Positions 1,067 through 39,123 of a stretch of 44,299 bases of DNA are shown here, piece by piece. The notes beneath the pieces were generated by a model that was not told where the DNA came from, did not search any database, and saw only the letters and a list, made by a program, of their open reading frames with translations. Position 1 is the first letter of the stretch. Each line of letters starts with the position of its first letter. Origin of the DNA: a virus; IMG/VR virus record IMGVR_UViG_3300029854_000006, one strand, 5' to 3'. The translations under genes and the position numbers were made by a program.

Positions 1067-1097
1067 AAAAATTTTTACTTTTTGTTACGCTTACCTA

Positions 1098-1126
1098 TTG
1101 ACATTTGCGCGTGAAAATGCTACTAA
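1098..1126 (+). promoter_or_regulatory. Putative sigma-70-type early promoter
   Basis: TTGACA (1098-1103), 17-nt spacer, TACTAA. It lies just upstream of the HTH/DGR-target operon and overlaps the left arm of the transposase terminator. Confidence 0.4.
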
Positions 1127-1170
1127 TAAGAGTAACAAAGCGTAAAGCGTTGTTACTCTTATTTTTTTAT
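1125..1170 (+). terminator. Rho-independent terminator after the transposase gene
   Basis: Perfect 14-bp stem aataagagtaacaa / ttgttactcttatt (1125-1138 / 1150-1163) followed by TTTTTAT. Confidence 0.75.
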
Positions 1171-1193: not shown

Positions 1194-1454
1194 ATGAACA
1201 ACAAATATTTGGGGCCTGCGGAGCGGCGACTGATCGCAGAGAAGTGGGCCGCCTATGCGTCAGTGCGTGAGATTGCGGATCTGGTAGGCGTGGCACCAAA
1301 GACCATTTATCAGGAACTGCGGCGCGGCGAAAACGGAAAGCTGGACGAAAACAGCCGCCAAGCGTATGACCCGGATCTGGCCCAGCGTCGTTTCCAGGAA
1401 AGCCTCCGACGGCGCGGCAAGTCCCTGAACAGAACGCGGGCGGCCAATGAATGA
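1194..1454 (+). CDS. Stand-alone IS30-type N-terminal HTH domain protein
   Basis: 86 aa. LGPAERRLIAEKWAAYASVREIADLVGVAPKTIYQELRRGE aligns with LTEHDRNKIAKMKKEGATMREIGAALHVSAATVCREIKRGT of the adjacent transposase. RBS ggaggtgaaagg. Confidence 0.7.
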   Translation: MNNKYLGPAERRLIAEKWAAYASVREIADLVGVAPKTIYQELRRGENGKLDENSRQAYDPDLAQRRFQESLRRRGKSLNRTRAANE

Positions 1455-2134
1455 GTGACCCAACCGCCATAGAGGCGGACAAAGTAAAGGAGGAAATGAC
1501 AATGGCAACCATCATCAAGCAGACGAAAGAGGAAATCAACTGGGCGGAGATCGCCAGGGCCAGGGAGCTGGGCGCACTGGACAAACTGCTGGCGGAGCGG
1601 GATGTGATCCGCTTCAACCTGCGGAGCGGCGCAGAGGCGGCCATCATGGTGGAAAAGGTGGAACCGGGCCGGGCCTGGATGGGATTTGTGGACGGCGTGG
1701 CAGAGCGGCCCATGTATAACCGCCTGGCGCGTCCTGTGTCCTGGAAAGAGAGCGACGCCCGGAAATGGTGCAACACCGATCTGATCCAGGATCTCCCGGA
1801 GGATCTGGTGTCCATCATCACCCACCGCACCATCCGCCAGACCATCAAGGGCGAGGAGCTGGTGACCACGGATCTGCTGTGGCTGCACAGCGTAACGGAG
1901 TTTTTTGGGCGAAAGCCCTGGGCAGATGGGGACGATCCAACGGAGGAGCAACTGCCGGTCTACAAGACCGAGCGGGACCGCGTGAAGATGTGGAACGGGG
2001 AAACCTGGCCGCACCACACCCGTTCCGCCAATGCGGGCACCAGCTACTATTTCTGCCGTGTCAACACGGACGGCACGCCCGGCAACTACTACGCGGACAT
2101 TTCAAGGGCGCTTGCCCCCGGCTTTTGGATCTAA
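1451..2134 (+). CDS. DGR target protein 2 (C-terminal variable region; CLec/DUF6273-like fold inferred)
   Basis: ATGA overlap with the upstream ORF; alternative start at 1502 with an AAGGAGG RBS. The C-terminus HTRSANAGTSYYFCRVNTDGTPGNYYADISRALAPGFWI matches the TR-encoded peptide. Confidence 0.85.
   Translation: MSDPTAIEADKVKEEMTMATIIKQTKEEINWAEIARARELGALDKLLAERDVIRFNLRSGAEAAIMVEKVEPGRAWMGFVDGVAERPMYNRLARPVSWKESDARKWCNTDLIQDLPEDLVSIITHRTIRQTIKGEELVTTDLLWLHSVTEFFGRKPWADGDDPTEEQLPVYKTERDRVKMWNGETWPHHTRSANAGTSYYFCRVNTDGTPGNYYADISRALAPGFWI
2018..2126 (+). repeat. DGR variable repeat VR2
   Basis: Gap-free alignment to TR 37588-37696. There are 10 mismatches, 9 at TR adenines and 1 T->G (TR 37628 / 2058). 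Confidence 0.9.
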
Positions 2135-2158
2135 TCGGCGGAGCGTATCAACGGAAAT

Positions 2159-2178
2159 CCAGCCCCCGCAAGGGGCGG
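2159..2178 (+). promoter_or_regulatory. GC hairpin with GCAA tetraloop downstream of VR2 (putative DGR target-recognition hairpin)
   Basis: Core cccc-gcaa-gggg at 2164-2175, extendable with two bulges to 2159-2178. It sits 37 nt after the VR2 end, as the hairpin does after VR1. Confidence 0.5.
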
Positions 2179-2193
2179 AGAAAGGAACCGGAC

Positions 2194-4963: not shown

Positions 4964-5142
4964 AAAAGACCTTGTGCAAACCATGTGCCATTGCCCTGGA
5001 GGAAAAGGGAAAGACGGTAAAACCTGCCGGCGGGCGGTGCGAGAAAATCACATGCGCAGAGTGTGGCCGCCGTCGTTTCGGTATCGCTTATGAGGTGACC
5101 GGCTGGCCGCGCCGCGTGAAAAAGGAGGACAAGCAGACATGA
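4960..5142 (+). CDS. Small zinc-ribbon-like protein
   Basis: 60 aa with CKPC...CAEC pairs. ATGA overlap with the upstream gene. Confidence 0.5.
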   Translation: MKKTLCKPCAIALEEKGKTVKPAGGRCEKITCAECGRRRFGIAYEVTGWPRRVKKEDKQT

Positions 5143-8977: not shown

Positions 8978-10812
8978 GCAAGGCGCAGATCAGCATGTGG
9001 GAGGAAAAGATCGTGGACAGTTTCGCCGGCGGCGGCGGAGCCTCCACAGGGATTGAGCTGGCCACGGGCCGAGTGGTGGACATAGCGATAAACCATGACC
9101 CGGACGCCATTCTCATGCACAAGACCAATCACCCGCACACCGTACACTATCAAGCCAGCGTGTGGGATGTGGACCCGCTCGAAGTTACAGGAGGCAGTCC
9201 GGTGGGACTGCTGTGGGCCTCTCCTGACTGCAAGCATTTCAGCAAGGCCAAGGGCGGAAAACCCGTGGACAAGCGGATCCGTGGGCTGGCCTGGATCGTC
9301 CTGCGGTGGGCTGGGACAGTCCGGCCCCGCGTGATCATCCTGGAGAATGTCGAGGAGTTCCAAACATGGGGGCCAGTGCGACACGGACACCCGATAAAGG
9401 CAAAGACAGGGCAGACATTCAGGCGGTTTATTGAACAACTGGAGGGCCTGGACTATGCCGTGGAATGGCGGGAGCTGGTGGCGGCGGACTATGGAGCGCC
9501 CACAACACGAAAGCGGTTTTTTCTGATCGCAAGATGTGACGGGAGGCCCATTGTGTGGCCGGAGCCTACACACGCGCCAGCGAAAAGCCCGGAGGTGCTG
9601 GCCGGGAAGAAATTGCCCTGGAGGAGCGCGGCGGAAATCATAGACTGGAGCCTGCCCTGCCCATCAATTTTTGATACACGGGAGGAAATCCGGGAGAAAT
9701 ACGGCCTTTCCGCCCAGCGGCCACTCCGGCCCAACACCATGCGCAGAGTGGCAAGAGGCGTGGACAAGTTTGTGATCAAGGCCGCGGATCCGTTCATCGT
9801 GCCGATGGGCTACGGGGAGCGGGACGGGCAGGCCCCGCGGGTCCATAACATCGAGGACCCGGCACCCACGGCGGTGGGAAAAGGAAAACATGGAATTTGC
9901 CAGCCGTACATGGTGCAGGTAAATCACCGTGGAGATTTCAGAGGGCAAACGATGGAAGATCCGCTCCAAACAATTACGGCAAAGCATGGGTATGGAGTGG
10001 CAAGCCCGGCCATGGCACCGTGGACGGTGACGAACACCACCAACTCAACGGGCCACCCGGTCAATGAGCCGATAGACACGGCGCGAACCGGCGGAGGAGG
10101 CGGGCAAATGTTTTTGGGGGCCTCCCTGATCCAGTACCACACGGAACAATCCGAGCATGTGAGAGGCCAGGAGATCACAGGGCCGATTATGACCATTGAC
10201 GCCGCCAACCGCTACGGCTTAACGGCGGCAAGCCTGGTCAAATACTACGGGAGTGCCCAGCACGGACAGAACATCCAGGACCCGCTCCACACGGTAATGG
10301 CAAAGGACCGGGAGGGGCTGACAACTGCCCACCTGGTCAAGATGAAAGGCACAAACCTGGGAGGACCGGCCACGGAGCCGGTGCAGACCATCACCGCCGG
10401 CGGAGGCCACCATGGTGTGATCACAACGCAGATCACCAGAGCGGAGCCGGGGGCGGATCTCCGACACTGGCCGGAGATCCGGGAACTGCTGAATACATAT
10501 TGCGGCTATGACTTGGGGCTGGAGGATGTGATCCTGTTCCAGATCGGCGGTGCATGGTATTTCATGGCGGACATTGGCCTGCGTATGCTGACGCCGCGGG
10601 AACTGTACCGGGCCAACGGTTTCCCGGATGATTACAAGATCGAGCGGGACTATACAGGGCAGACCTACGGAAAAAGCAAGCAGGTGGCCAGGTGCGGAAA
10701 TGCGGTGCCACCTCCCTTTGCCACGGCCCTGGTGCGGGCAAACCTGCCGGAATGGTGCGCGGGGGTGGAGATCAGTACCATGGAGGAGCTGGAAAGGGCG
10801 GTGGCGGTGTGA
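8974..10812 (+). CDS. DNA (cytosine-5) methyltransferase with expanded, internally repetitive target-recognition region
   Basis: Motif I DSFAGGGG, motif IV SPDCKHFS, motif VI IILENVEEF, motif X GNAVPPPF. At 612 aa it carries a ~200-aa repetitive insert before motif IX/X. Confidence 0.85.
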   Translation: MSKAQISMWEEKIVDSFAGGGGASTGIELATGRVVDIAINHDPDAILMHKTNHPHTVHYQASVWDVDPLEVTGGSPVGLLWASPDCKHFSKAKGGKPVDKRIRGLAWIVLRWAGTVRPRVIILENVEEFQTWGPVRHGHPIKAKTGQTFRRFIEQLEGLDYAVEWRELVAADYGAPTTRKRFFLIARCDGRPIVWPEPTHAPAKSPEVLAGKKLPWRSAAEIIDWSLPCPSIFDTREEIREKYGLSAQRPLRPNTMRRVARGVDKFVIKAADPFIVPMGYGERDGQAPRVHNIEDPAPTAVGKGKHGICQPYMVQVNHRGDFRGQTMEDPLQTITAKHGYGVASPAMAPWTVTNTTNSTGHPVNEPIDTARTGGGGGQMFLGASLIQYHTEQSEHVRGQEITGPIMTIDAANRYGLTAASLVKYYGSAQHGQNIQDPLHTVMAKDREGLTTAHLVKMKGTNLGGPATEPVQTITAGGGHHGVITTQITRAEPGADLRHWPEIRELLNTYCGYDLGLEDVILFQIGGAWYFMADIGLRMLTPRELYRANGFPDDYKIERDYTGQTYGKSKQVARCGNAVPPPFATALVRANLPEWCAGVEISTMEELERAVAV

Positions 10813-15351: not shown

Positions 15352-15966
15352 GTGCAGCCGGTGGCGGAGAAAAAAGGGGCCGGAAAGGCCAAAACAGGGG
15401 CGGCCAGCAAGGCGGCGAAAGCGCCGGCGGCCCTGAATACAGTCCCGGAGTGGGCCAGCACTACGGCGGTGGCCAAGCTGCTGGGGAAAACCACACGGAG
15501 GATCCAGCAGCTCACCCAGGACGGCGTGCTGGAAACCGAGGTGCCGCCCGGCGGCGGCGCCCGAAAATATAAAACCTGCGAAACGATCCAGCGTTATATT
15601 GCCCACATCGAGCAAAAGGCCCAGGAAACGGCGGCGGCCAGCTCCACCGCAGAGCTGAACCTGCGGAAGCTGGAGGCGGAGGTGGAGCTGAAAGAGAGCC
15701 AGGGCCAGCTCCACAAGCTGAAAACCGCCATTGCCGAGGGAAAATACATCAAGGCCGAGGAGGCCACCAGAGATCTGGCAGACTTCATGGCCATGTTTAA
15801 GAAATTCGCCATGAACATCCCGCCCCGCACTGTGAAATCCATAGCCGGATATGCAGACCCACAAACGGCCAGGGCTATGGAAAAGGCAATGCGCAAGGAG
15901 CTGGAGGACATGCTGGCCGTATTCGTTGACGCGGCGGAGATCGGACCGGAGGAGGCGGAGCCATGA
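15352..15966 (+). CDS. Terminase small subunit (Nu1-like HTH)
   Basis: HTH TTAVAKLLGKTTRRIQQLTQDGVL followed by a coiled coil. ATGA overlap with the large terminase. The GTG at 15361 has better RBS spacing than 15352. Confidence 0.6.
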   Translation: MQPVAEKKGAGKAKTGAASKAAKAPAALNTVPEWASTTAVAKLLGKTTRRIQQLTQDGVLETEVPPGGGARKYKTCETIQRYIAHIEQKAQETAAASSTAELNLRKLEAEVELKESQGQLHKLKTAIAEGKYIKAEEATRDLADFMAMFKKFAMNIPPRTVKSIAGYADPQTARAMEKAMRKELEDMLAVFVDAAEIGPEEAEP

Positions 15967-17795
15967 GGCCGTATAGGGTAAAGCCGTACACGGTGCCGTC
16001 GTGGATCCACCGGGCGCTCCTGTCCCTGCGGCCAGCGGAACGCCTGCCGGTTTCCAAATGGGCGGAGAAATGGCGGGTCCTGCCCGACACCAACGCCATA
16101 CCGGGGCCATTCCGAAACAGCGTGACCCCGTATCTGGCGGAGATCATGGACGCATTTTCCAACGAGGATGTGGAGCGGATCGTATTTGTGAAGCCCACCC
16201 AGGTGGGAGGCACAACGGCGCTGGAGAACATGCTGGCCAGCGCGATTGACCAGGACCCGGCACCAGCAATGATCGTCTATCCATCCGACAAACTGGCAGA
16301 GCGGACGGTGGAGGCGAAGCTGGAGCCGATGATCCGGCAATGCAAACCGCTGACAGCCAAGTACCGGGAGGCGGAAAGCCAAAAGCTAAAGCTAAAATTT
16401 GAAACCATGTTCGTTTTCCTTTCGGGAGCAAACAGCCCGGCCTCCCTTTCCTCCACACCGATCCGGTATCTGTTTCTCGACGAAGTGGACAAATTTCCGG
16501 GAGCCTCCAAACGGGAGGCGGATCCGGTTTCCCTGGCCATTGAGCGAACCAAGACCTACACCACAAACCGCAAGATCTTCATGGCCTCCACCCCTACGCT
16601 GAAATCCGGCCACATCTGGAAAGCCAAGGAGGAGGCGGAAGCGGAAAAGCATTACTTTGTGCCATGCCCACATTGCGGGGAGTACATCGAATTTGTGTTC
16701 GCGCAGCTGAAATGGCCGAGCAAGGACGATGTGCCGGACAGCGCCGAGCGGGCGGAAATGGCAACCTATGTCTGCCAAGACTGCGGGGCCGTGATCACTG
16801 ACCAGGACAAGGGGAAAATGCTGGCCGCCGGCAGGTGGCAGACGGTCCGACAGACAGCCGCCAGGCCCTCCAGCGTGGCCTATTGGCTGAACACCCTGTA
16901 CTCCCCTTTCACGCGGTTTTCAGAGATTGCCAAGGAGTTCCTGCGGTGTAAGGATGACCCGGAGCTGCTGCAAAACTTTGTCAACAGCTGGCTGGCGGAG
17001 CCATGGGAGGACACCAAACTGCGGACCAATGCGGAGCTGGTGCTGGAGCGGCAGACCGAGGTGGAGGCATACGCCCTGCCGAAATGGACAAAGCTGATCA
17101 CCGCCGGCATAGATGTGCAGGAAAATTGCCTGTACTGGACGATCCGGGCCTGGGGCGATTACATGACCAGCCAGAACATTGCCCACGGCCAGGCGCTATC
17201 CATGAACGAGGTGGCGCAGATCATGAACACCGAGTTTATACACCCGGACGGGCAAAGACTTTTGGTGTCGCTGGCCCTGATGGACAGCGGCGACCAGACG
17301 GATGAAGTTTATGATTTCTGCCTCTTAAATTCGGACTGGGTGCTGCCCAGCAAGGGAACCGGCACCATGCTGTCCAACTACCGCCTGTCCACGATCAACA
17401 AGGCTGGCAGCAACGCCAACGGAATGACACTGGTGCTGGTGGACGGCGGGAAATACAAGGACATGATTGCCGCCCGAATGAGGAAGCCAAACGGGAAAGG
17501 ATCCTGGATGGTCTACAAGGGATGTGATCTGGAGTATGCGGAGCAGGTCACCGCGGAGCATAAAGTGACCGAGCGGGCCAACGGGAAAGTGGTGCAGAAA
17601 TGGGTGCCGAAAACCACCCACGCAGACAACCACTATCTGGACTGCGAGGTGTACGCCGCGGCGGCGGCAGACATGCAGGGTGTACGGTCCCTCTACCTGC
17701 AAAGCCAGGAACCGGAGAAGCCAAAAAAGCCAAAACCGGAGCCTGCGCCGACCCCGGAGGAAAACTGGATCCGGCAGAATGAAAGCTGGGTATAA
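15963..17795 (+). CDS. Terminase large subunit, lambda GpA family
   Basis: 610 aa with the Walker-A-like FVKPTQVGGTT characteristic of GpA-type terminases. Position is upstream of gpW and the portal. Confidence 0.85.
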   Translation: MRPYRVKPYTVPSWIHRALLSLRPAERLPVSKWAEKWRVLPDTNAIPGPFRNSVTPYLAEIMDAFSNEDVERIVFVKPTQVGGTTALENMLASAIDQDPAPAMIVYPSDKLAERTVEAKLEPMIRQCKPLTAKYREAESQKLKLKFETMFVFLSGANSPASLSSTPIRYLFLDEVDKFPGASKREADPVSLAIERTKTYTTNRKIFMASTPTLKSGHIWKAKEEAEAEKHYFVPCPHCGEYIEFVFAQLKWPSKDDVPDSAERAEMATYVCQDCGAVITDQDKGKMLAAGRWQTVRQTAARPSSVAYWLNTLYSPFTRFSEIAKEFLRCKDDPELLQNFVNSWLAEPWEDTKLRTNAELVLERQTEVEAYALPKWTKLITAGIDVQENCLYWTIRAWGDYMTSQNIAHGQALSMNEVAQIMNTEFIHPDGQRLLVSLALMDSGDQTDEVYDFCLLNSDWVLPSKGTGTMLSNYRLSTINKAGSNANGMTLVLVDGGKYKDMIAARMRKPNGKGSWMVYKGCDLEYAEQVTAEHKVTERANGKVVQKWVPKTTHADNHYLDCEVYAAAAADMQGVRSLYLQSQEPEKPKKPKPEPAPTPEENWIRQNESWV

Positions 17796-34456: not shown

Positions 34457-36970
34457 ATGTTTTACGGATTTGTCATTACAGAGGCCGGCAACAATCTGCT
34501 GGCCAAAATGGTGGCCGGCGACAAGCTGACCATTACCAAGGTGGTCATGGACAAGGGCACGGCGGAGAGCGCGGAGGCCGCCCGGAAGCTGACCGCCCCC
34601 ATTGACCCAGGCCCAAACGGCACCAGCACCGTGCCCACGGTGGAGGGCGCCGCCGTCAACATGCTGGTGGAATACCGCAGCGACCTGAACGGCGGATTAC
34701 AGGAGGGTTTCTGGATCGGCGGTTTTGCCGTGTTCGGCAAGGTAGAGAACGGGGCCGAAACCATGATTTATTATGGGTCCATGGGAGAACAAAAGCAGTA
34801 TGTGAGCGCCTATGTGGAGGGAACCGCCCCGGATGTGCGCCGCTACCCCGTTTCCATCACCGTGACCGCCGGCGTGGAGGTAGAGGTGTCCTATCCTGCG
34901 GAGGCATGGATGACTGCCGAGGAGGTGGCGGAATACTTCAACGGGACCCTAAAGCCGGAGCTGGAGGAGAGCCTGGGCGGCCTGATCAAAACACACAACG
35001 AGGATCAAAACGCCCATAACGGTGCCCTGAAAGACAAGCAGGACGCCATCAAGGTGGAGGGCCTGCTGAAAGGGACCAAGACCGCCGGCGAGGGCGGGGA
35101 CACCTACACCGTAGGCGCGGCCACACCGGGCACCGACTACCAGCAGCCCACCAACAAGCTGACGCCGGCGGAGGCCATGACCACACAGGACTTTATCCCG
35201 TTCTATGACCACGACAGCGGCCAGCACATGCGGGCCACGCTCCAGAGCCTGAAAGAGGCCATCGGCGTGCAAAGCCCCACCATCAAGGTGACCACCTGCG
35301 CCGGCGCGTCTGTGACCTGTTCGGACGGGGAAACCACCCTGGAGGGCACGGGATCCACGGAGTTTGAGCTGCCCTATGTGGGGGACTGGACCGTGACCGC
35401 CTCCCTGGGCGGAGCAAACGCCAGCCAAGTGGTGGATGTGAGCGGCGCCCTGCTGTACGAGGTGGATCTGATGATCACCAGCGGCATTGCCGTGACCGCC
35501 CAGCCCAGCAAAAAGACCTATTACATCGGGGAGGCATTTGACCCGGCAGGCATGGTGGTAACTGCTACCTTTGCGGATGACACCACCGAAAATGTGACAA
35601 ACGACTGCACTTTCTCCCCTGTCACCATTTCCAAGGGCACAACGGCCATCACGGTGAACTACCAGCGGGCGGGGATCAAGAAAACCGCCAGCGTGCCGGT
35701 GACGGTGCGGGTGCTGTCCAGCATTGCGATCACAACCGCCCCCGCAAAGACGGCGTACAAATACGGGGAGATCTTCAACCCCTCCGGCATGGTGGTGACG
35801 GCCCACTACACAGACGGCCAGAGCCGGACGGTGACCGGGTACACATTCTCCCCCGACACGGCCCTGGGCATGAGCAACACCACCATTACGATCTCCTATA
35901 CGGAGGGGGATGTGACCAAGACCACAACCCAGGCCATCACGGTGGCCAAGGTGCTGGACCGTATCGCCGTCACAACGCCACCCAGCCGGACCAGCTATTT
36001 TTCCGGGGAGAGTTTCAGCACCTCCGGCATGGTGGTGACCGCCTATTACACCGATGACAGCAGCGCGGCGGTGAGCGGGTACACCTATTCCCCCACCGGC
36101 GCCCTGGCGGCGGGAAACAAAACGATCACCATTTCGTACAGCGAGGGCGGCGTGACTAAGACCACCACGCAAGCAATCACGGTGACCACGATCAGCACAA
36201 CGCTGAACTCCAACAGCTGGGCCACCATCAAGGCGGTTTCTGACGCTGGACAGGGGGACAATTACTGGGATGTGGGCGACACAAAGACCATCACCATCAA
36301 TGGAACGGTGCAGGGCTTTACATTCTCCAACCTGTCCATTGCTGTCTTTATCCTGGGTTTCAACCACAACAGCAGCCGCGAGGGAAGCAACCGGATCCAT
36401 TTCCAGATCGGGAAGATCTCCAGCAAGCTGGTGGGCCTGTGTGATAACAGTTACGGCAGCTATGTATCAAGCGGTTTCTGTATGAATACCAGCCGGACCA
36501 ACTCCGGCGGATGGAATGGCAGCTACATGCGAAAAACCGTACTGGGCAATAGCGGGACCCCATCCAGCCCGCCGGCCAACTCCCTGCTGGCGGCCCTGCC
36601 GGCAGACCTCCGGGCTGTGATGAAGCCGATCACAAAATATAGTGACAACACCGGAGGCGGGAACAATACGGCCAGCTATGTGACTGCCACCACGGATTAT
36701 TTAACCCTGCTGGCAGAGTTTGAATACCACGGCAGCCGGAGCTACGCCAACAGCGCGGAGCAGAACTACCAAAAGCAGTATGACTATTACAAGGCGGGAA
36801 ACAGCAAGGTGCATTACAGGCACGACAACACGGGATCGGCGGTCTTTGCGTGGACCCGTTCCGCCTATGCGGGCGGCAGCAGCATTTTCTGCCTTGTCAG
36901 CACGGCTGGCACGCCCGGCAGCACCAACGCGGACTCTTCAAGGGCGCTTGCCCCCGGCTTTGCCGCCTAA
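34457..36970 (+). CDS. Tail fibre: collar-like N-terminus, three Ig-like repeats, C-terminal DGR-diversified ligand-binding domain
   Basis: 837 aa after gpI. The C-terminus FAWTRSAYAGGSSIFCLVSTAGTPGSTNADSSRALAPGFAA is encoded by VR1. Confidence 0.9.
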   Translation: MFYGFVITEAGNNLLAKMVAGDKLTITKVVMDKGTAESAEAARKLTAPIDPGPNGTSTVPTVEGAAVNMLVEYRSDLNGGLQEGFWIGGFAVFGKVENGAETMIYYGSMGEQKQYVSAYVEGTAPDVRRYPVSITVTAGVEVEVSYPAEAWMTAEEVAEYFNGTLKPELEESLGGLIKTHNEDQNAHNGALKDKQDAIKVEGLLKGTKTAGEGGDTYTVGAATPGTDYQQPTNKLTPAEAMTTQDFIPFYDHDSGQHMRATLQSLKEAIGVQSPTIKVTTCAGASVTCSDGETTLEGTGSTEFELPYVGDWTVTASLGGANASQVVDVSGALLYEVDLMITSGIAVTAQPSKKTYYIGEAFDPAGMVVTATFADDTTENVTNDCTFSPVTISKGTTAITVNYQRAGIKKTASVPVTVRVLSSIAITTAPAKTAYKYGEIFNPSGMVVTAHYTDGQSRTVTGYTFSPDTALGMSNTTITISYTEGDVTKTTTQAITVAKVLDRIAVTTPPSRTSYFSGESFSTSGMVVTAYYTDDSSAAVSGYTYSPTGALAAGNKTITISYSEGGVTKTTTQAITVTTISTTLNSNSWATIKAVSDAGQGDNYWDVGDTKTITINGTVQGFTFSNLSIAVFILGFNHNSSREGSNRIHFQIGKISSKLVGLCDNSYGSYVSSGFCMNTSRTNSGGWNGSYMRKTVLGNSGTPSSPPANSLLAALPADLRAVMKPITKYSDNTGGGNNTASYVTATTDYLTLLAEFEYHGSRSYANSAEQNYQKQYDYYKAGNSKVHYRHDNTGSAVFAWTRSAYAGGSSIFCLVSTAGTPGSTNADSSRALAPGFAA
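35474..36184 (+). repeat. Three tandem Ig-like domain repeats within the fibre gene (78-80 aa each)
   Basis: Units 35474-35707, 35708-35944 and 35945-36184. Each reads IA(V/I)T..P.K..Y..GE.F...GMVVTA.Y.D...V.....SP........T.I.Y......K.....ITV. Confidence 0.8.
36837..36961 (+). repeat. DGR variable repeat VR1
   Basis: 125-nt gap-free alignment to TR 37571-37695. There are 17 mismatches, 16 at TR adenines and 1 C->T (TR 37641 / 36907). Confidence 0.92.
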
Positions 36971-36995
36971 TCGCCGCAGCATATCCGGCCCCAAT

Positions 36996-37018
36996 CCCGT
37001 CCCGCGGAAGCGGGCGGG
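36996..37018 (+). promoter_or_regulatory. GC hairpin with GGAA tetraloop downstream of VR1 (putative DGR target-recognition hairpin)
   Basis: cccg-t-cccgc GGAA gcggg-cggg forms 9 bp with one bulge, 34 nt after the VR1 end. Confidence 0.55.
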
Positions 37019-37057
37019 ATGACCAGAGCGCAGAAACCAAGAGAGGAGGACACCACC

Positions 37058-37516
37058 GTGTCCGTTTTGAAAGAGAAACGCACCACCAGCAAGGCGGAGT
37101 ATGTGAACACAGCAAACCAGATCTATGTGAAAACCGTGGATTTTCTTTCGCGGCTGTCCGCCCGATACTCCCGGCTGATCGCGGCGGACACCTCACACCT
37201 GGCCGGGCAGGTCATGGACCACGCGGAGCAGGCAAACAAGATCTTTCCGTCCGACGGGCAGAGAAAGGAACTGCGGAAAGCGCACCACCTGGAGGCCCTG
37301 GGCGCCCTGTCCGCCCTGGATGTGCGCCTGACCCACTGCTATGAAATCCTGTACTGCAACCCGCAGGGCGCTTTCACCGACAACAAGGGAAAGAGCGTGG
37401 CGCCCAGGGAGGCCATGGAGCGGCTGGACCGCATGGCCCAGGAGCTGGGGGAGCTGATCGACCAGGAGGAAACCCTGCTGCGGAACATCATGGAGAGCGA
37501 TAAGAAACGAAAATAG
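37058..37516 (+). CDS. avd: DGR accessory variability determinant (Avd-like helical bundle protein)
   Basis: GTG 7 nt after gaggagga. ~150-aa helical, basic protein located between the target gene and TR. The call is mostly positional. Confidence 0.6.
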   Translation: MSVLKEKRTTSKAEYVNTANQIYVKTVDFLSRLSARYSRLIAADTSHLAGQVMDHAEQANKIFPSDGQRKELRKAHHLEALGALSALDVRLTHCYEILYCNPQGAFTDNKGKSVAPREAMERLDRMAQELGELIDQEETLLRNIMESDKKRK

Positions 37517-37570
37517 GTCATAACTGGGTGTATTTCTGAACAAGTGCCGTGCGGCAGGGCGACACTCCGG

Positions 37571-37696
37571 CGGCGGTCAATGCGTGGACCCGTTCCGCCA
37601 ATGCGGGCAACAGCAACAATTTCTGCCTTGTCAACACGGACGGCACGCCCAACAACAACAACGCGGACAATTCAAGGGCGCTTGCCCCCGGATTTT
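37571..37696 (+). repeat. DGR template repeat (TR)
   Basis: Non-coding copy of the VR sequence. In the target frame it carries 11 AAY codons (…NAWTRSANAGNSNNFCLVNTDGTPNNNNADNSRALAPGF). Confidence 0.92.
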
Positions 37697-37965
37697 ATAG
37701 AATGGGTTGAAAGCGGACGCCAGGCGCGTCCCGAACCCGTATAAAAGGAGAAATACTTCCCTGGGTGTAAATCCCTAAAACTGCGCCGCTTGGGAGAGCG
37801 GCATAGGGTATAACCCACGAAAATGGCCGATACCCTATCTTTTGAAGCCTTTACACGGACGCTTTTTGCATGGCGGGTGATGTGCCTTACCCCGTTTCAT
37901 GTGTCGAGGCAAAGCAGATTAGACGGCACCCTACAATTTATCTGCACGAAAGGCGAATACCAATT
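37697..37965 (+). ncRNA. TR-RT spacer, probable structured part of the DGR RNA
   Basis: 269 nt with no convincing ORF. Hairpins are ggacgc/gcgtcc (37715-37731), gccgc/gcggc (37785-37802) and tagggtat/ataccCta (37804-37837). Confidence 0.4.
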
Positions 37966-39123
37966 ATGACAAGTCAAGAGCGCCGGGAGGCGCGATACCA
38001 ACGCCGCAAGGCGCGGCGGAGAAGAAACAGGCAGGCCCGCAGCGACGGCCTGGGCGGGCTGGCGGGCGTTTTCAGCTACCGGAACATGTTCAAGTACGGG
38101 AAAAAGTGCTGCAACGGCGTGCGCTGGAAAGGATCTACACATAACTTTGAGCTGCACCTGTTTTCCGGCACGGCCAAGCGGCGGCGCAGGATCCTGGACG
38201 GGAAATGGAGGCCGGGAAAAACCATCCGCTTTCCCCTGCGGGAGCGGGGAAAGTTTCGGACCATCGACGCACCGCACATCACGGACCGACAGATCCACAA
38301 GGTTTTCACCAGGGAGGTGCTGGCGCCGCTCTACTGCCCCAGCATGATCTATGACAACGGGGCAAGCCAAAAGGGAAAGGGCCTGCACTTTCATTTCCAG
38401 AGGCTAAAGGAACAGCTGCGCTGGCATTACCGGCGGCACGGGCGGCAGGGCGCCATCATGCTGGCGGATTTCCACCACTTTTTCCCGGACGCGCCACACG
38501 CGCTGCTGTATGAACGGCACCGGCGCCTGATCCTGGACCAGGACCTGCGGGCGCTGGCGGATCTGATGGTGGCGGCGGTGCCGGGCGAGGTGGGCATGTA
38601 CCTGGGCGTGGAGCCGAGCCAGCAGGAAATGGTGGCCCTGCCCTCCTATCTGGACAACTGGATGAAATGCCAGCTTTCCCTCCACGGCATGGGCCACTAT
38701 ATGGATGATTACAACGCGATCCTGGAGGGTACGGAGCAGGCGGAGAGGGTCCTGGCGGAAATGATCCGCCGGGCGGCGGAAAAGGGACTGACGATCAACC
38801 GGAACAAATGCCATGTGATCAGCCTGGACAAGCCTTTCCGTTTCTGCAAAGCCAAGTTTCAGATTTTGCCCAGCGGGCGGGTCATCACCCACGGCTGCCG
38901 GGACGGCATGAAGCGGGCGCGGCGGAAAATGCGATATTTCCGCAAGCAGGTGGACGCCGGGGAAAAGACCGTGGAGCAGGTGGCGGAATGGCTGAAAGGT
39001 CCAATCGCCTACTATGAGCAATTCAACGACCATGGGCGGGTGCTGAAACTGCGCCGCCTGTATTACGCCCTGTTCATCAAGGGCAGGAAAACAGAGGAGG
39101 TAAAACCATGTATCGGATCGTAA
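37966..39123 (+). CDS. DGR reverse transcriptase
   Basis: 385 aa from the internal ATG (track ORF 37870-39123). LGVEPSQ matches the DGR-specific [ILV]GxxxSQ motif. YMDD catalytic motif. Confidence 0.9.
   Translation: MTSQERREARYQRRKARRRRNRQARSDGLGGLAGVFSYRNMFKYGKKCCNGVRWKGSTHNFELHLFSGTAKRRRRILDGKWRPGKTIRFPLRERGKFRTIDAPHITDRQIHKVFTREVLAPLYCPSMIYDNGASQKGKGLHFHFQRLKEQLRWHYRRHGRQGAIMLADFHHFFPDAPHALLYERHRRLILDQDLRALADLMVAAVPGEVGMYLGVEPSQQEMVALPSYLDNWMKCQLSLHGMGHYMDDYNAILEGTEQAERVLAEMIRRAAEKGLTINRNKCHVISLDKPFRFCKAKFQILPSGRVITHGCRDGMKRARRKMRYFRKQVDAGEKTVEQVAEWLKGPIAYYEQFNDHGRVLKLRRLYYALFIKGRKTEEVKPCIGS

Follow-up and report, generated by a model that had tools for sequence, protein, structure and literature searches.

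The DNA analysed here, hereafter the window, is a 44,299-nucleotide stretch from a virus, a temperate gut phage (IMG/VR record IMGVR_UViG_3300029854_000006) that carries a diversity-generating retroelement (DGR) as well as, far from it, a small gene that ends in a second variable repeat. The single complete DGR, at 34.4-39.1 kb, consists of a tail-fibre gene with a first variable repeat (VR1), a gene in the position of Avd, a template repeat (TR) and the gene for a reverse transcriptase (RT); the second variable repeat (VR2) lies at the 3' end of the small gene (Table 1). The best explanation of the evidence as a whole, and one that we regard as very probable, is that VR2 is a genuine and recently used second target of the phage's single DGR. 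TR would be transcribed and copied by the RT with errors at adenines, and the resulting complementary DNA (cDNA) would take the place of either VR1, in the tail fibre, or VR2, in the small gene. The contig is circular: the first 99 nt of the window recur at its end, which gives a unit of 44,200 bp. Its G+C content is 58.7%, and nearly all long open reading frames (ORFs) are on the + strand.

Evidence for rewriting of VR2

The original prediction, made from the letters of the window without database searches, had aligned VR2 with TR (2018-2126 against 37588-37696) and counted 10 mismatches, nine at TR adenines and the other a change of T37628 to G2058. This alignment was reproduced, and the peptide quoted for VR2 matches as well. 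The bias towards adenine is strong (at least 9 of 10 mismatches on A, given 29 A in 109 TR positions; hypergeometric P = 1.9e-5), VR2 is in frame at the 3' end of the small ORF, and 27 of the 29 TR adenines stand at codon position 1 or 2 of that ORF. Homology with TR breaks off abruptly at 2018, and VR1 reaches 17 nt further 5'. A BLAST search with TR within the window found no copy besides VR1, VR2 and TR itself. The separation of TR and VR2 across the circular junction had been put at about 8.5 kb, and the distance from the end of TR to the start of VR2 was measured at 8,522 nt in the circular form; in the integrated prophage the two are about 35 kb apart. VR1 and VR2 differ in state at most adenine positions, in agreement with the earlier proposal that they were diversified independently from one TR. 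VR1 itself has one non-adenine mismatch to TR, C to T at 36907 (TR 37641), which adjoins an adenine substitution at 36906.

One adenine mismatch, A37692 to C, occurs in VR1 and VR2 alike and does not vary in any relative. This is the marker that distinguishes VR from TR, corresponding to the initiation of mutagenic homing (IMH) and IMH* elements, and not a product of mutagenesis; the mismatches of VR2 thereby become eight adenine substitutions, one marker and one T-to-G change. The marker directly follows a 16-nt GC box that is identical in all three repeats, with C after the box in VR1 (36942-36957) and A after it in TR (37676-37691). This C is invariant in the VRs of all relatives, and VR and TR diverge after the TTT that comes next. 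The GC box and the difference between C and A are predicted to represent IMH versus IMH*, which would give the process its directionality. Beyond the repeats, a predicted hairpin starts 37 nt after the GC box at both VR2 (2158-2179) and VR1 (36994-37020); the folding z-score of the VR2 hairpin segment alone is modest (-1.05). Since both targets carry the same GC box, C in place of A, 19-nt box (Table 1) and hairpin at +37 nt, each site is rewritten independently. For phage BPP-1, Guo et al. reportedly described in 2011 a 3' element of the GC-rich IMH type that is accompanied by a hairpin downstream. Directly 3' of TR, a stable stem-loop is predicted at 37693-37745 (z = -2.4), and it may be part of a DGR RNA spacer needed for priming.

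Comparison with relatives bears on whether VR2 has in fact been overwritten. Those with the gene comprise 14 full-length close viral contigs, 2 truncated ones and 6 from bacterial genomes or metagenome-assembled genomes (MAGs). A VR-bearing ORF is found at this position in the relatives, and the order of the helix-turn-helix (HTH) gene, the small target, p2194 and p2477 is kept in all close ones. Among 15 copies, 27 of 29 TR-adenine columns vary as against 22 of 80 non-adenine columns, with a mean column variability of 0.34 at TR adenines versus 0.05 elsewhere. In the scaffold (codons 1-172) the ratio of nonsynonymous to synonymous substitution rates (dN/dS) is 0.19, as compared with 1.8 for the VR. 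Between the window and its closest relative, L002, only 3 of 1,206 flanking nt differ (HTH gene, scaffold and next gene), whereas the 109 nt of VR2 hold 14 differences, 13 of which are at TR adenines.

An exact-pattern scan of the relatives yielded eleven TRs, belonging to seven further sequence variants. Each VR2 fits one TR variant with 0-2 non-adenine mismatches; the remaining close variants give 3-9 and the two divergent types 14-22, and the adenine mismatches between VR2 and TR number about 8-15 whatever TR variant is compared. This can be seen on a single 45-kb contig that holds both TR and VR2 (L021/L004), where there are again nine adenine mismatches and one other. As copying is the only way for non-adenine changes in TR to arrive at a site 8.5 kb distant, VR2 has been overwritten from its TR many times. 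The adenine bias, the sharp boundary and the covariation with TR type led us to reject the idea that the match to TR stems from chance or paralogy. The original prediction of a second target served by the one TR is thus upheld by the adenine bias, the tracking of TR variants and the comparison with L002. The prediction had also considered that homologues might lack any TR match; the VR2s of the relatives match their cognate TR variants, and on this comparative evidence VR2 is a bona fide, recently active second DGR target and no relic.

A different origin for the similarity would be ordinary recombination or gene conversion between the 3' end of the fibre gene and the small gene, with no retrohoming at all. 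The 19-nt box and the similar hairpins in both flanks would provide some homology for such an exchange, but the differences are restricted to TR adenines, VR2 resembles the non-coding TR more closely than it does VR1, the A that is specific to TR at 37692 is never copied and the homology stops sharply at 2018. Recombination of this sort is, in our judgement, extremely improbable.

The relatives also show what becomes of the two targets when the cassette changes. In L005 and L006, avd, TR and RT are gone, and the fibre gene (84-87% identical) is directly followed by a homologue of p39108 (L005:3578-3644 and L006:1807-1873, as compared with 36970-39108 in the window). Both genomes keep VR1-like and VR2-like sequences, with 2 and 4 non-adenine mismatches between VR2 and the TR type that fits best. 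L010 has a divergent cassette (1014-1875), with an RT that is 63% identical and a TR that is cognate to its own VR1. Set against this resident TR, its VR2 (10517-10625) shows 19 non-adenine mismatches, and it is a perfect fit to the L020-type TR, a pattern that indicates that a fibre-plus-DGR module was swapped and VR2 left orphaned.

The small gene itself is also mobile among positions. It is missing after the HTH gene in MT835543.1 and in Dulem virus 34. A second slot, between a methyltransferase gene and a replication gene, holds a paralogous small DUF6273 target that is 33-35% identical (L030:7587-8255; L001:8995-9660). Dulem virus 34 has only this second slot occupied (35648-36313), by a 33%-identical paralogue with a VR cognate to its own TR, and in the Flavonifractor porci prophage both slots are filled, with VRs of two different TR types. 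In L040, a distant member of the family, a 44-nt stretch near the 3' end of the small gene (5026-5069) recurs with 91% identity at the start of the 60-kb contig (1-44), and this probably represents the edge of the TR, or of the other VR, of that phage.

These states bear on a further alternative, that VR2 is a frozen relic, being either a paralogue of the fibre tip that keeps its similarity to TR or a former target that is no longer rewritten. Consistent with this are the orphan states of the relatives (L005 and L006 with no cassette, L010 with its 19 mismatches), the two small paralogues of the F. porci prophage with VRs of different TR types, and the Faecalibacterium phages Lelie and CP11, whose VRs both lacked a read-level signal in culture (Gulyaeva et al. 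2024, PMC11792537). The VR2 of the window, however, has one non-adenine mismatch to the resident TR and intact recognition elements, L002 differs from it almost solely at VR2 positions that are adenines in TR, and VR2 tracks TR variants across lineages, all of which makes a relic distinctly unlikely here.

A few points nonetheless weigh against VR2 as a recently used target of a complete DGR. G2058, which replaces CTT (Leu) with CGT (Arg) in "FCRV", is present in 5 of 16 slot-A copies (window, L004, L002, L006 and L012) spanning two TR types, and again in the slot-B paralogue of the F. porci prophage (L030). The corresponding TR position, 37628, is T in all 12 TRs where it was read; G2058 is non-templated, and it is kept although the adenine positions on either side are rewritten. 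A simple full-length overwrite would leave this persistence unexplained. In addition, we infer ongoing activity in this phage from comparison between genomes, and the small protein may also work without diversification, as L005, L006 and L010 keep the gene. Finally, the Avd assignment is by position only: no Avd match to ORF 37019-37516 was found in Pfam, NCBIfam or PDB sequence searches, and the gene in this position, TR and RT are present or absent together among the relatives.

The small protein and its possible role

The start of the small gene is set by ATG 1502, which stands behind the invariant AAAGGAGGAAA and is a conserved start that fits the N-termini of distant homologues. The original prediction had allowed a length of 210-227 aa and proposed translational coupling to the HTH gene through an ATGA overlap. 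Only the 210-aa form stands; the 227-aa start at ATG 1451 was rejected, and the proposed coupling falls with it, as this ATG is out of frame in six relatives through frameshifts. The spacer between the HTH stop codon and the ribosome-binding site (RBS) of the small gene holds a conserved small inverted repeat, CCGCC...GGCGG, at 1461-1480.

The protein matches PF19789 (E 1.8e-11; 44.7 bits against a gathering cutoff of 23.5), with residues 70-210 covering profile positions 23-170 of 172 and the VR at the C-terminal end of the DUF6273 domain. The C-terminal part had been said to resemble the C-terminal domain of the fibre, and this likeness is borne out by the shared DUF6273 domain and by 41% identity over 94 aligned positions. 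The 837-aa fibre, unlike the small protein, also matches phrog_7037 and Big_3. An exhaustive search returned 461 clusters at 50% identity, in which many proteins of 205-230 aa align end to end, N-terminal 60-70 residues included; proteins of this stand-alone build thus form a family of their own. Clusters of the 210-aa protein at 90% identity (P0029, P0007, P0015 and P0004) have up to 3,125 distinct member sequences, which is unusually many and is what a hypervariable C-terminus would produce. Among annotated phages, tblastn with the small protein reached 2 records only, and phage Shimadzu was reached via more distant family members.

AlphaFold2, supplied with the family alignment, modelled one compact domain (pLDDT 96, pTM 0.91) in which the VR forms the last beta-strands and neither a separate N-terminal module nor a membrane-anchor module is visible. 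The single domain agrees with the earlier statement that the protein has no fibre-like N-terminus; as to the signal peptide and transmembrane segment that were also said to be absent, the model has no membrane anchor, and no dedicated signal-peptide or transmembrane predictor was used. The best solved-structure match is the N-terminal domain of ThomasA (PDB 9qa6; Foldseek E 1.6e-4, TM-score 0.60, query-normalised), an immunoglobulin A (IgA) peptidase of Thomasclavelia ramosa whose depositors labelled this domain DUF6273 (PMC12402451). ThomasA differs from the small protein in being a secreted, cell-wall-anchored bacterial protease that is not from a phage and is no DGR target, and the identity is 12%. 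In the structure search, classical C-type lectins match weakly and the C-terminal domain of Legionella Lcl moderately. Neighbours in BFVD, a library of viral structures, are phage DUF6273 proteins that either stand alone or lie within annotated fibres or receptor-binding proteins, some of them tail-collar fibres. A PDB sequence-profile search returned no Mtd, TvpA or other DGR-target structure. No PADLOC model matches the small protein, and its neighbours give marginal hits only; a known role in anti-phage defence is accordingly unsupported.

Taken together, the product is a 210-aa protein modelled as one compact DUF6273 domain, putatively C-type-lectin-like, in which the VR codes for the C-terminal strands, on the same scaffold as the tip of the fibre. 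It is plausible that this protein is soluble, binds a ligand and is produced together with the early genes, with a specificity tuned apart from that of the fibre. The analysis shows the repeat anatomy, the adenine-directed rewriting, the family membership, the modelled fold and the genomic setting, whereas expression timing, cellular location and ligand are matters that we infer. Within the best explanation, we consider a role outside the tail to be about evenly balanced with its opposite. Genomic location favours such a role. Four diverse members of the family (L039-L042) lie among genes for methyltransferases, YopX, SSB, DNA polymerase A, ThyX or dCMP deaminase, and in all seven genomic settings inspected the protein of about 210 aa is encoded in early or DNA-metabolism modules and never in structural ones; the inspection covered the window, Dulem virus 34, the F. 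porci prophage, Shimadzu and L039-L042.

A more specific proposal, which we hold only tentatively and consider rather unlikely as it stands, is that the family of about 210 aa is a non-virion early binder, cytoplasmic or released on lysis, that is retuned by the DGR. Its ligands would be variable components of host defence or surface biosynthesis, or else the receptor, in which case it would serve superinfection exclusion or protect progeny from debris. Expression of the small gene might also be tied to excision, as the sole upstream promoter-like element spans the joined ends.

The opposing possibility, which we rate as a real but lesser one, is that the small protein is a virion component. 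It would then be an accessory receptor-binding protein or adhesin with a function like that of Mtd, attached to the fibre or baseplate or decorating the particle, and an ordinary second adsorption protein encoded outside the tail module. Several observations speak for a place on the virion and count against a non-tail role. The DUF6273 scaffold and the TR are common to the small protein and the fibre tip, DUF6273 domains are often found at the tips of proteins annotated as receptor-binding, the BFVD neighbours include an annotated tail-collar fibre and receptor-binding proteins, and the authors who described nd4_tgt2 and nd12_tgt2 (PMC10743442) and Toutatisvirus (10.1101/2024.10.15.618418) favour receptor binding. 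Against it, the modelled protein is a single compact domain without an anchoring beta-prism or beta-sandwich of the Mtd type, there is no sequence link to Mtd or TvpA, and all seven of the seven settings inspected are early or DNA-metabolism modules and none is structural.

The original prediction could not tie the small target to anything described. This no longer holds, as at least four publications describe precedents, most of them with the second target remote from TR: small DUF6273 second targets have been reported for several gut phages, and the phage described here joins them. Among the closest is orf43 of the Roseburia phage Shimadzu, which carries a second VR; about 2% of virion reads had 10-15 DGR-type mismatches at both VRs (bioRxiv 10.1101/575076), and evolved isolates had 10-15 mutations per VR (Cornuault et al., bioRxiv 10.1101/575076; ISME J 2020). 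The orf43 product, of about 209 aa with a C-terminal VR, is a full-length member of the family (hhalign 99.9%, E 2.3e-32, 199 columns), it shares one TR, as second target, with a first target that is a tail gene adjoining the RT, and its gene lies in an early/replication block between a methyltransferase gene and Erf. The two systems differ in that identity is about 25%, Shimadzu has a serine recombinase, and its gene is in mid-operon and not at the prophage end as here; the diversification demonstrated by reads is that of Shimadzu.

Other precedents were compared by description. Lelie and CP11 have large and small DUF6273 targets, with the second VR 16-23 kb from TR (Gulyaeva et al. 2024, PMC11792537, Table S3). 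In Toutatisvirus the second target is in the core genome, 17,480 nt from TR, and some phages without the DGR keep both targets (bioRxiv 10.1101/2024.10.15.618418), as in L005 and L006, where the cassette is lost and both targets are kept. Like the window, these phages have one large and one small target, each with a DUF6273 domain whose C-terminal end carries the VR; they differ in belonging to other lineages, which tblastn with the small protein does not reach, and in a first target that is Hoc-like or a tentaclin, where here it is a Big_3 tail fibre. The nd4_tgt2 and nd12_tgt2 proteins, of 234-294 aa, consist of DUF6273 only and have a C-type-lectin-like fold in which the 3' VR forms a beta-hairpin (Baykov et al. 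2023, PMC10743442). They likewise are small DUF6273-only second targets sharing one TR, but their genes lie within the DGR cassette beside the tentaclin, whereas the small gene here is 8.5 kb off in the circular form and 35 kb off in the prophage. Mtd of Bordetella phage BPP-1, 381 aa in length, forms a trimeric tip of the tail fibre and has a beta-prism at its N-terminus as well as a beta-sandwich (PMC10743442). This prototype of DGR targets shares with the small protein a C-terminal VR, adenine mutagenesis from a TR and probably a binding domain of the C-type-lectin fold, and differs in that the small protein has no beta-prism or beta-sandwich in its model, no detectable sequence similarity and a gene outside the tail module. 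A recent preprint reported lysogen expression, and presence in the secretome, of a tentaclin that is a DUF6273 DGR target of a prophage; non-adsorption roles for DUF6273 are thus already under discussion.

Gene neighbourhood and prophage ends

The location outside the tail module that had been proposed for the small gene was confirmed: counted from the left prophage end it comes second, within the lysogeny, early and replication part of the genome. The genes run from an endolysin (41087) and an XRE-type regulator (43914) through the transposase, HTH_38, the small target and two unknown genes to a methyltransferase, a phosphohydrolase, a transglycosylase, a replication initiator and a large methyltransferase. 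A 610-aa ORF at 15963-17795, about 14 kb downstream of the small gene, is taken to open the packaging/structural block, an assignment made with no family search.

The transposase upstream had been presented as an IS30 neighbour, implying an inserted insertion sequence (IS). The integrated copies show that it is instead the phage's own integrase, at the right prophage end. Homology to the window begins exactly at 1112 in a Clostridiales MAG, in F. porci and in Ruminococcaceae AM07-15, and in these three integrated copies the DNA 5' of 1112 is unrelated, AT-rich host DNA that has no transposase gene (L029:9541-9700, L030:1762-1920 and L034:6942-7100). Circular relatives differ only by 2-4 nt between ...TTGACATTTGC and TGAAAATGC..., and circle junctions of IS30 elements have a short variable spacer between the ends. 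An inserted IS that brought the small gene was rejected, as the integrated copies start at 1112 without a transposase and what the inverted repeats enclose is the entire 44-kb genome. As a whole, the 44-kb phage acts in the manner of a giant IS30-type element of low target specificity.

An early-looking promoter had been proposed upstream of the operon. The element there has a perfect -35 box (TTGACA, 1098-1103), but its -10 box is poor (TACTAA, 1121-1126) and a consensus promoter scan did not call the element at 1098; the proposed early promoter is accordingly regarded as weak. It is the sole promoter-like element upstream of the operon of the HTH gene and small target. The -35 lies in the right-end repeat and the -10 in the left-end repeat, so the element exists only when the ends of the phage are joined, which hints that expression of the operon may depend on excision. 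A terminator-like hairpin at 1128-1160 is followed by a run of seven T and shows compensatory changes among relatives (GCG/CGC versus GGG/CCC); a transcript starting near 1133 would be without the 5' arm of this hairpin.

Table 1. Positions of the two targets, the DGR cassette and the neighbouring features in the window.
Feature	Position	Strand	Description
IS30-family DDE transposase (phage integrase)	20..1066	+	NF033563, 222 bits against a cutoff of 80; phrog_4646; right prophage end
attP junction	1080..1142	.	right-end inverted repeat about 1080-1108, variable spacer of 2-4 nt, left-end repeat from 1112; repeats imperfect
HTH_38 DNA-binding protein	1194..1454	+	PF13936, E 3e-11; phrog_11420; first gene of the left-end operon, directly 5' of the small target
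RBS AAGGAGG	1487..1493	+	8 nt 5' of ATG 1502; invariant in 21 copies
Small DGR target gene	1502..2134	+	210 aa; one stand-alone DUF6273 (putatively C-type-lectin-like) domain; Pfam PF19789; phrog_21980
VR2	2018..2126	+	codons 173-208 of 210 in the small gene; gap-free with TR 37588-37696 (109 nt)
3' GC box GGGCGCTTGCCCCCGG then CTTTT	2106..2126	+	IMH-like; TR has ATTTT
19-nt box CTAATCGSCGSAGCRTATC	2131..2149	+	also in the VR1 flank (36967-36985), absent from TR; both 10 nt after the GC box
GC-rich hairpin 3' of VR2	2158..2179	+	predicted target-recognition hairpin; stem-loop by folding; conserved in relatives
Tail-fibre gene (first DGR target)	34457..36970	+	837 aa; phrog_7037 N-terminus, three Big_3 repeats, weak C-terminal DUF6273
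VR1 in the tail-fibre gene	36837-36962	+	aligned to TR 37571-37696
Avd-like accessory gene	37019..37516	+	165 aa; phrog_30516; between VR1 and TR; assigned by position only
TR	37571..37696	+	adenine-rich (AAC codons), non-coding, between the avd-like gene and RT; 37588-37696 is the part copied into VR2
DGR reverse transcriptase	37870..39123	+	Pfam RVT_1, E 1.2e-10; phrog_1423, E 5.6e-65

Significance of a second target

To our knowledge, DGRs are the only natural systems of targeted protein hypermutation outside adaptive immunity, and those of phages have been read almost entirely as host-range devices that act on adsorption. In the phage described here, one TR clearly serves two structurally related proteins that are deployed differently, the tip of a fibre and a free-standing domain encoded with the early genes. 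To the published precedents the comparison adds the concerted evolution of VR2 and TR, which shows repeated homing into a remote site, evidence for swapping or loss of the fibre-plus-DGR cassette while the small target remains, and the uniform location of the small family in early modules in every lineage inspected. This uniform location makes the purpose of the small target a well-posed question. If the small protein is indeed a binder that is not part of the virion, it would represent the first non-adsorption function for a phage DGR target.

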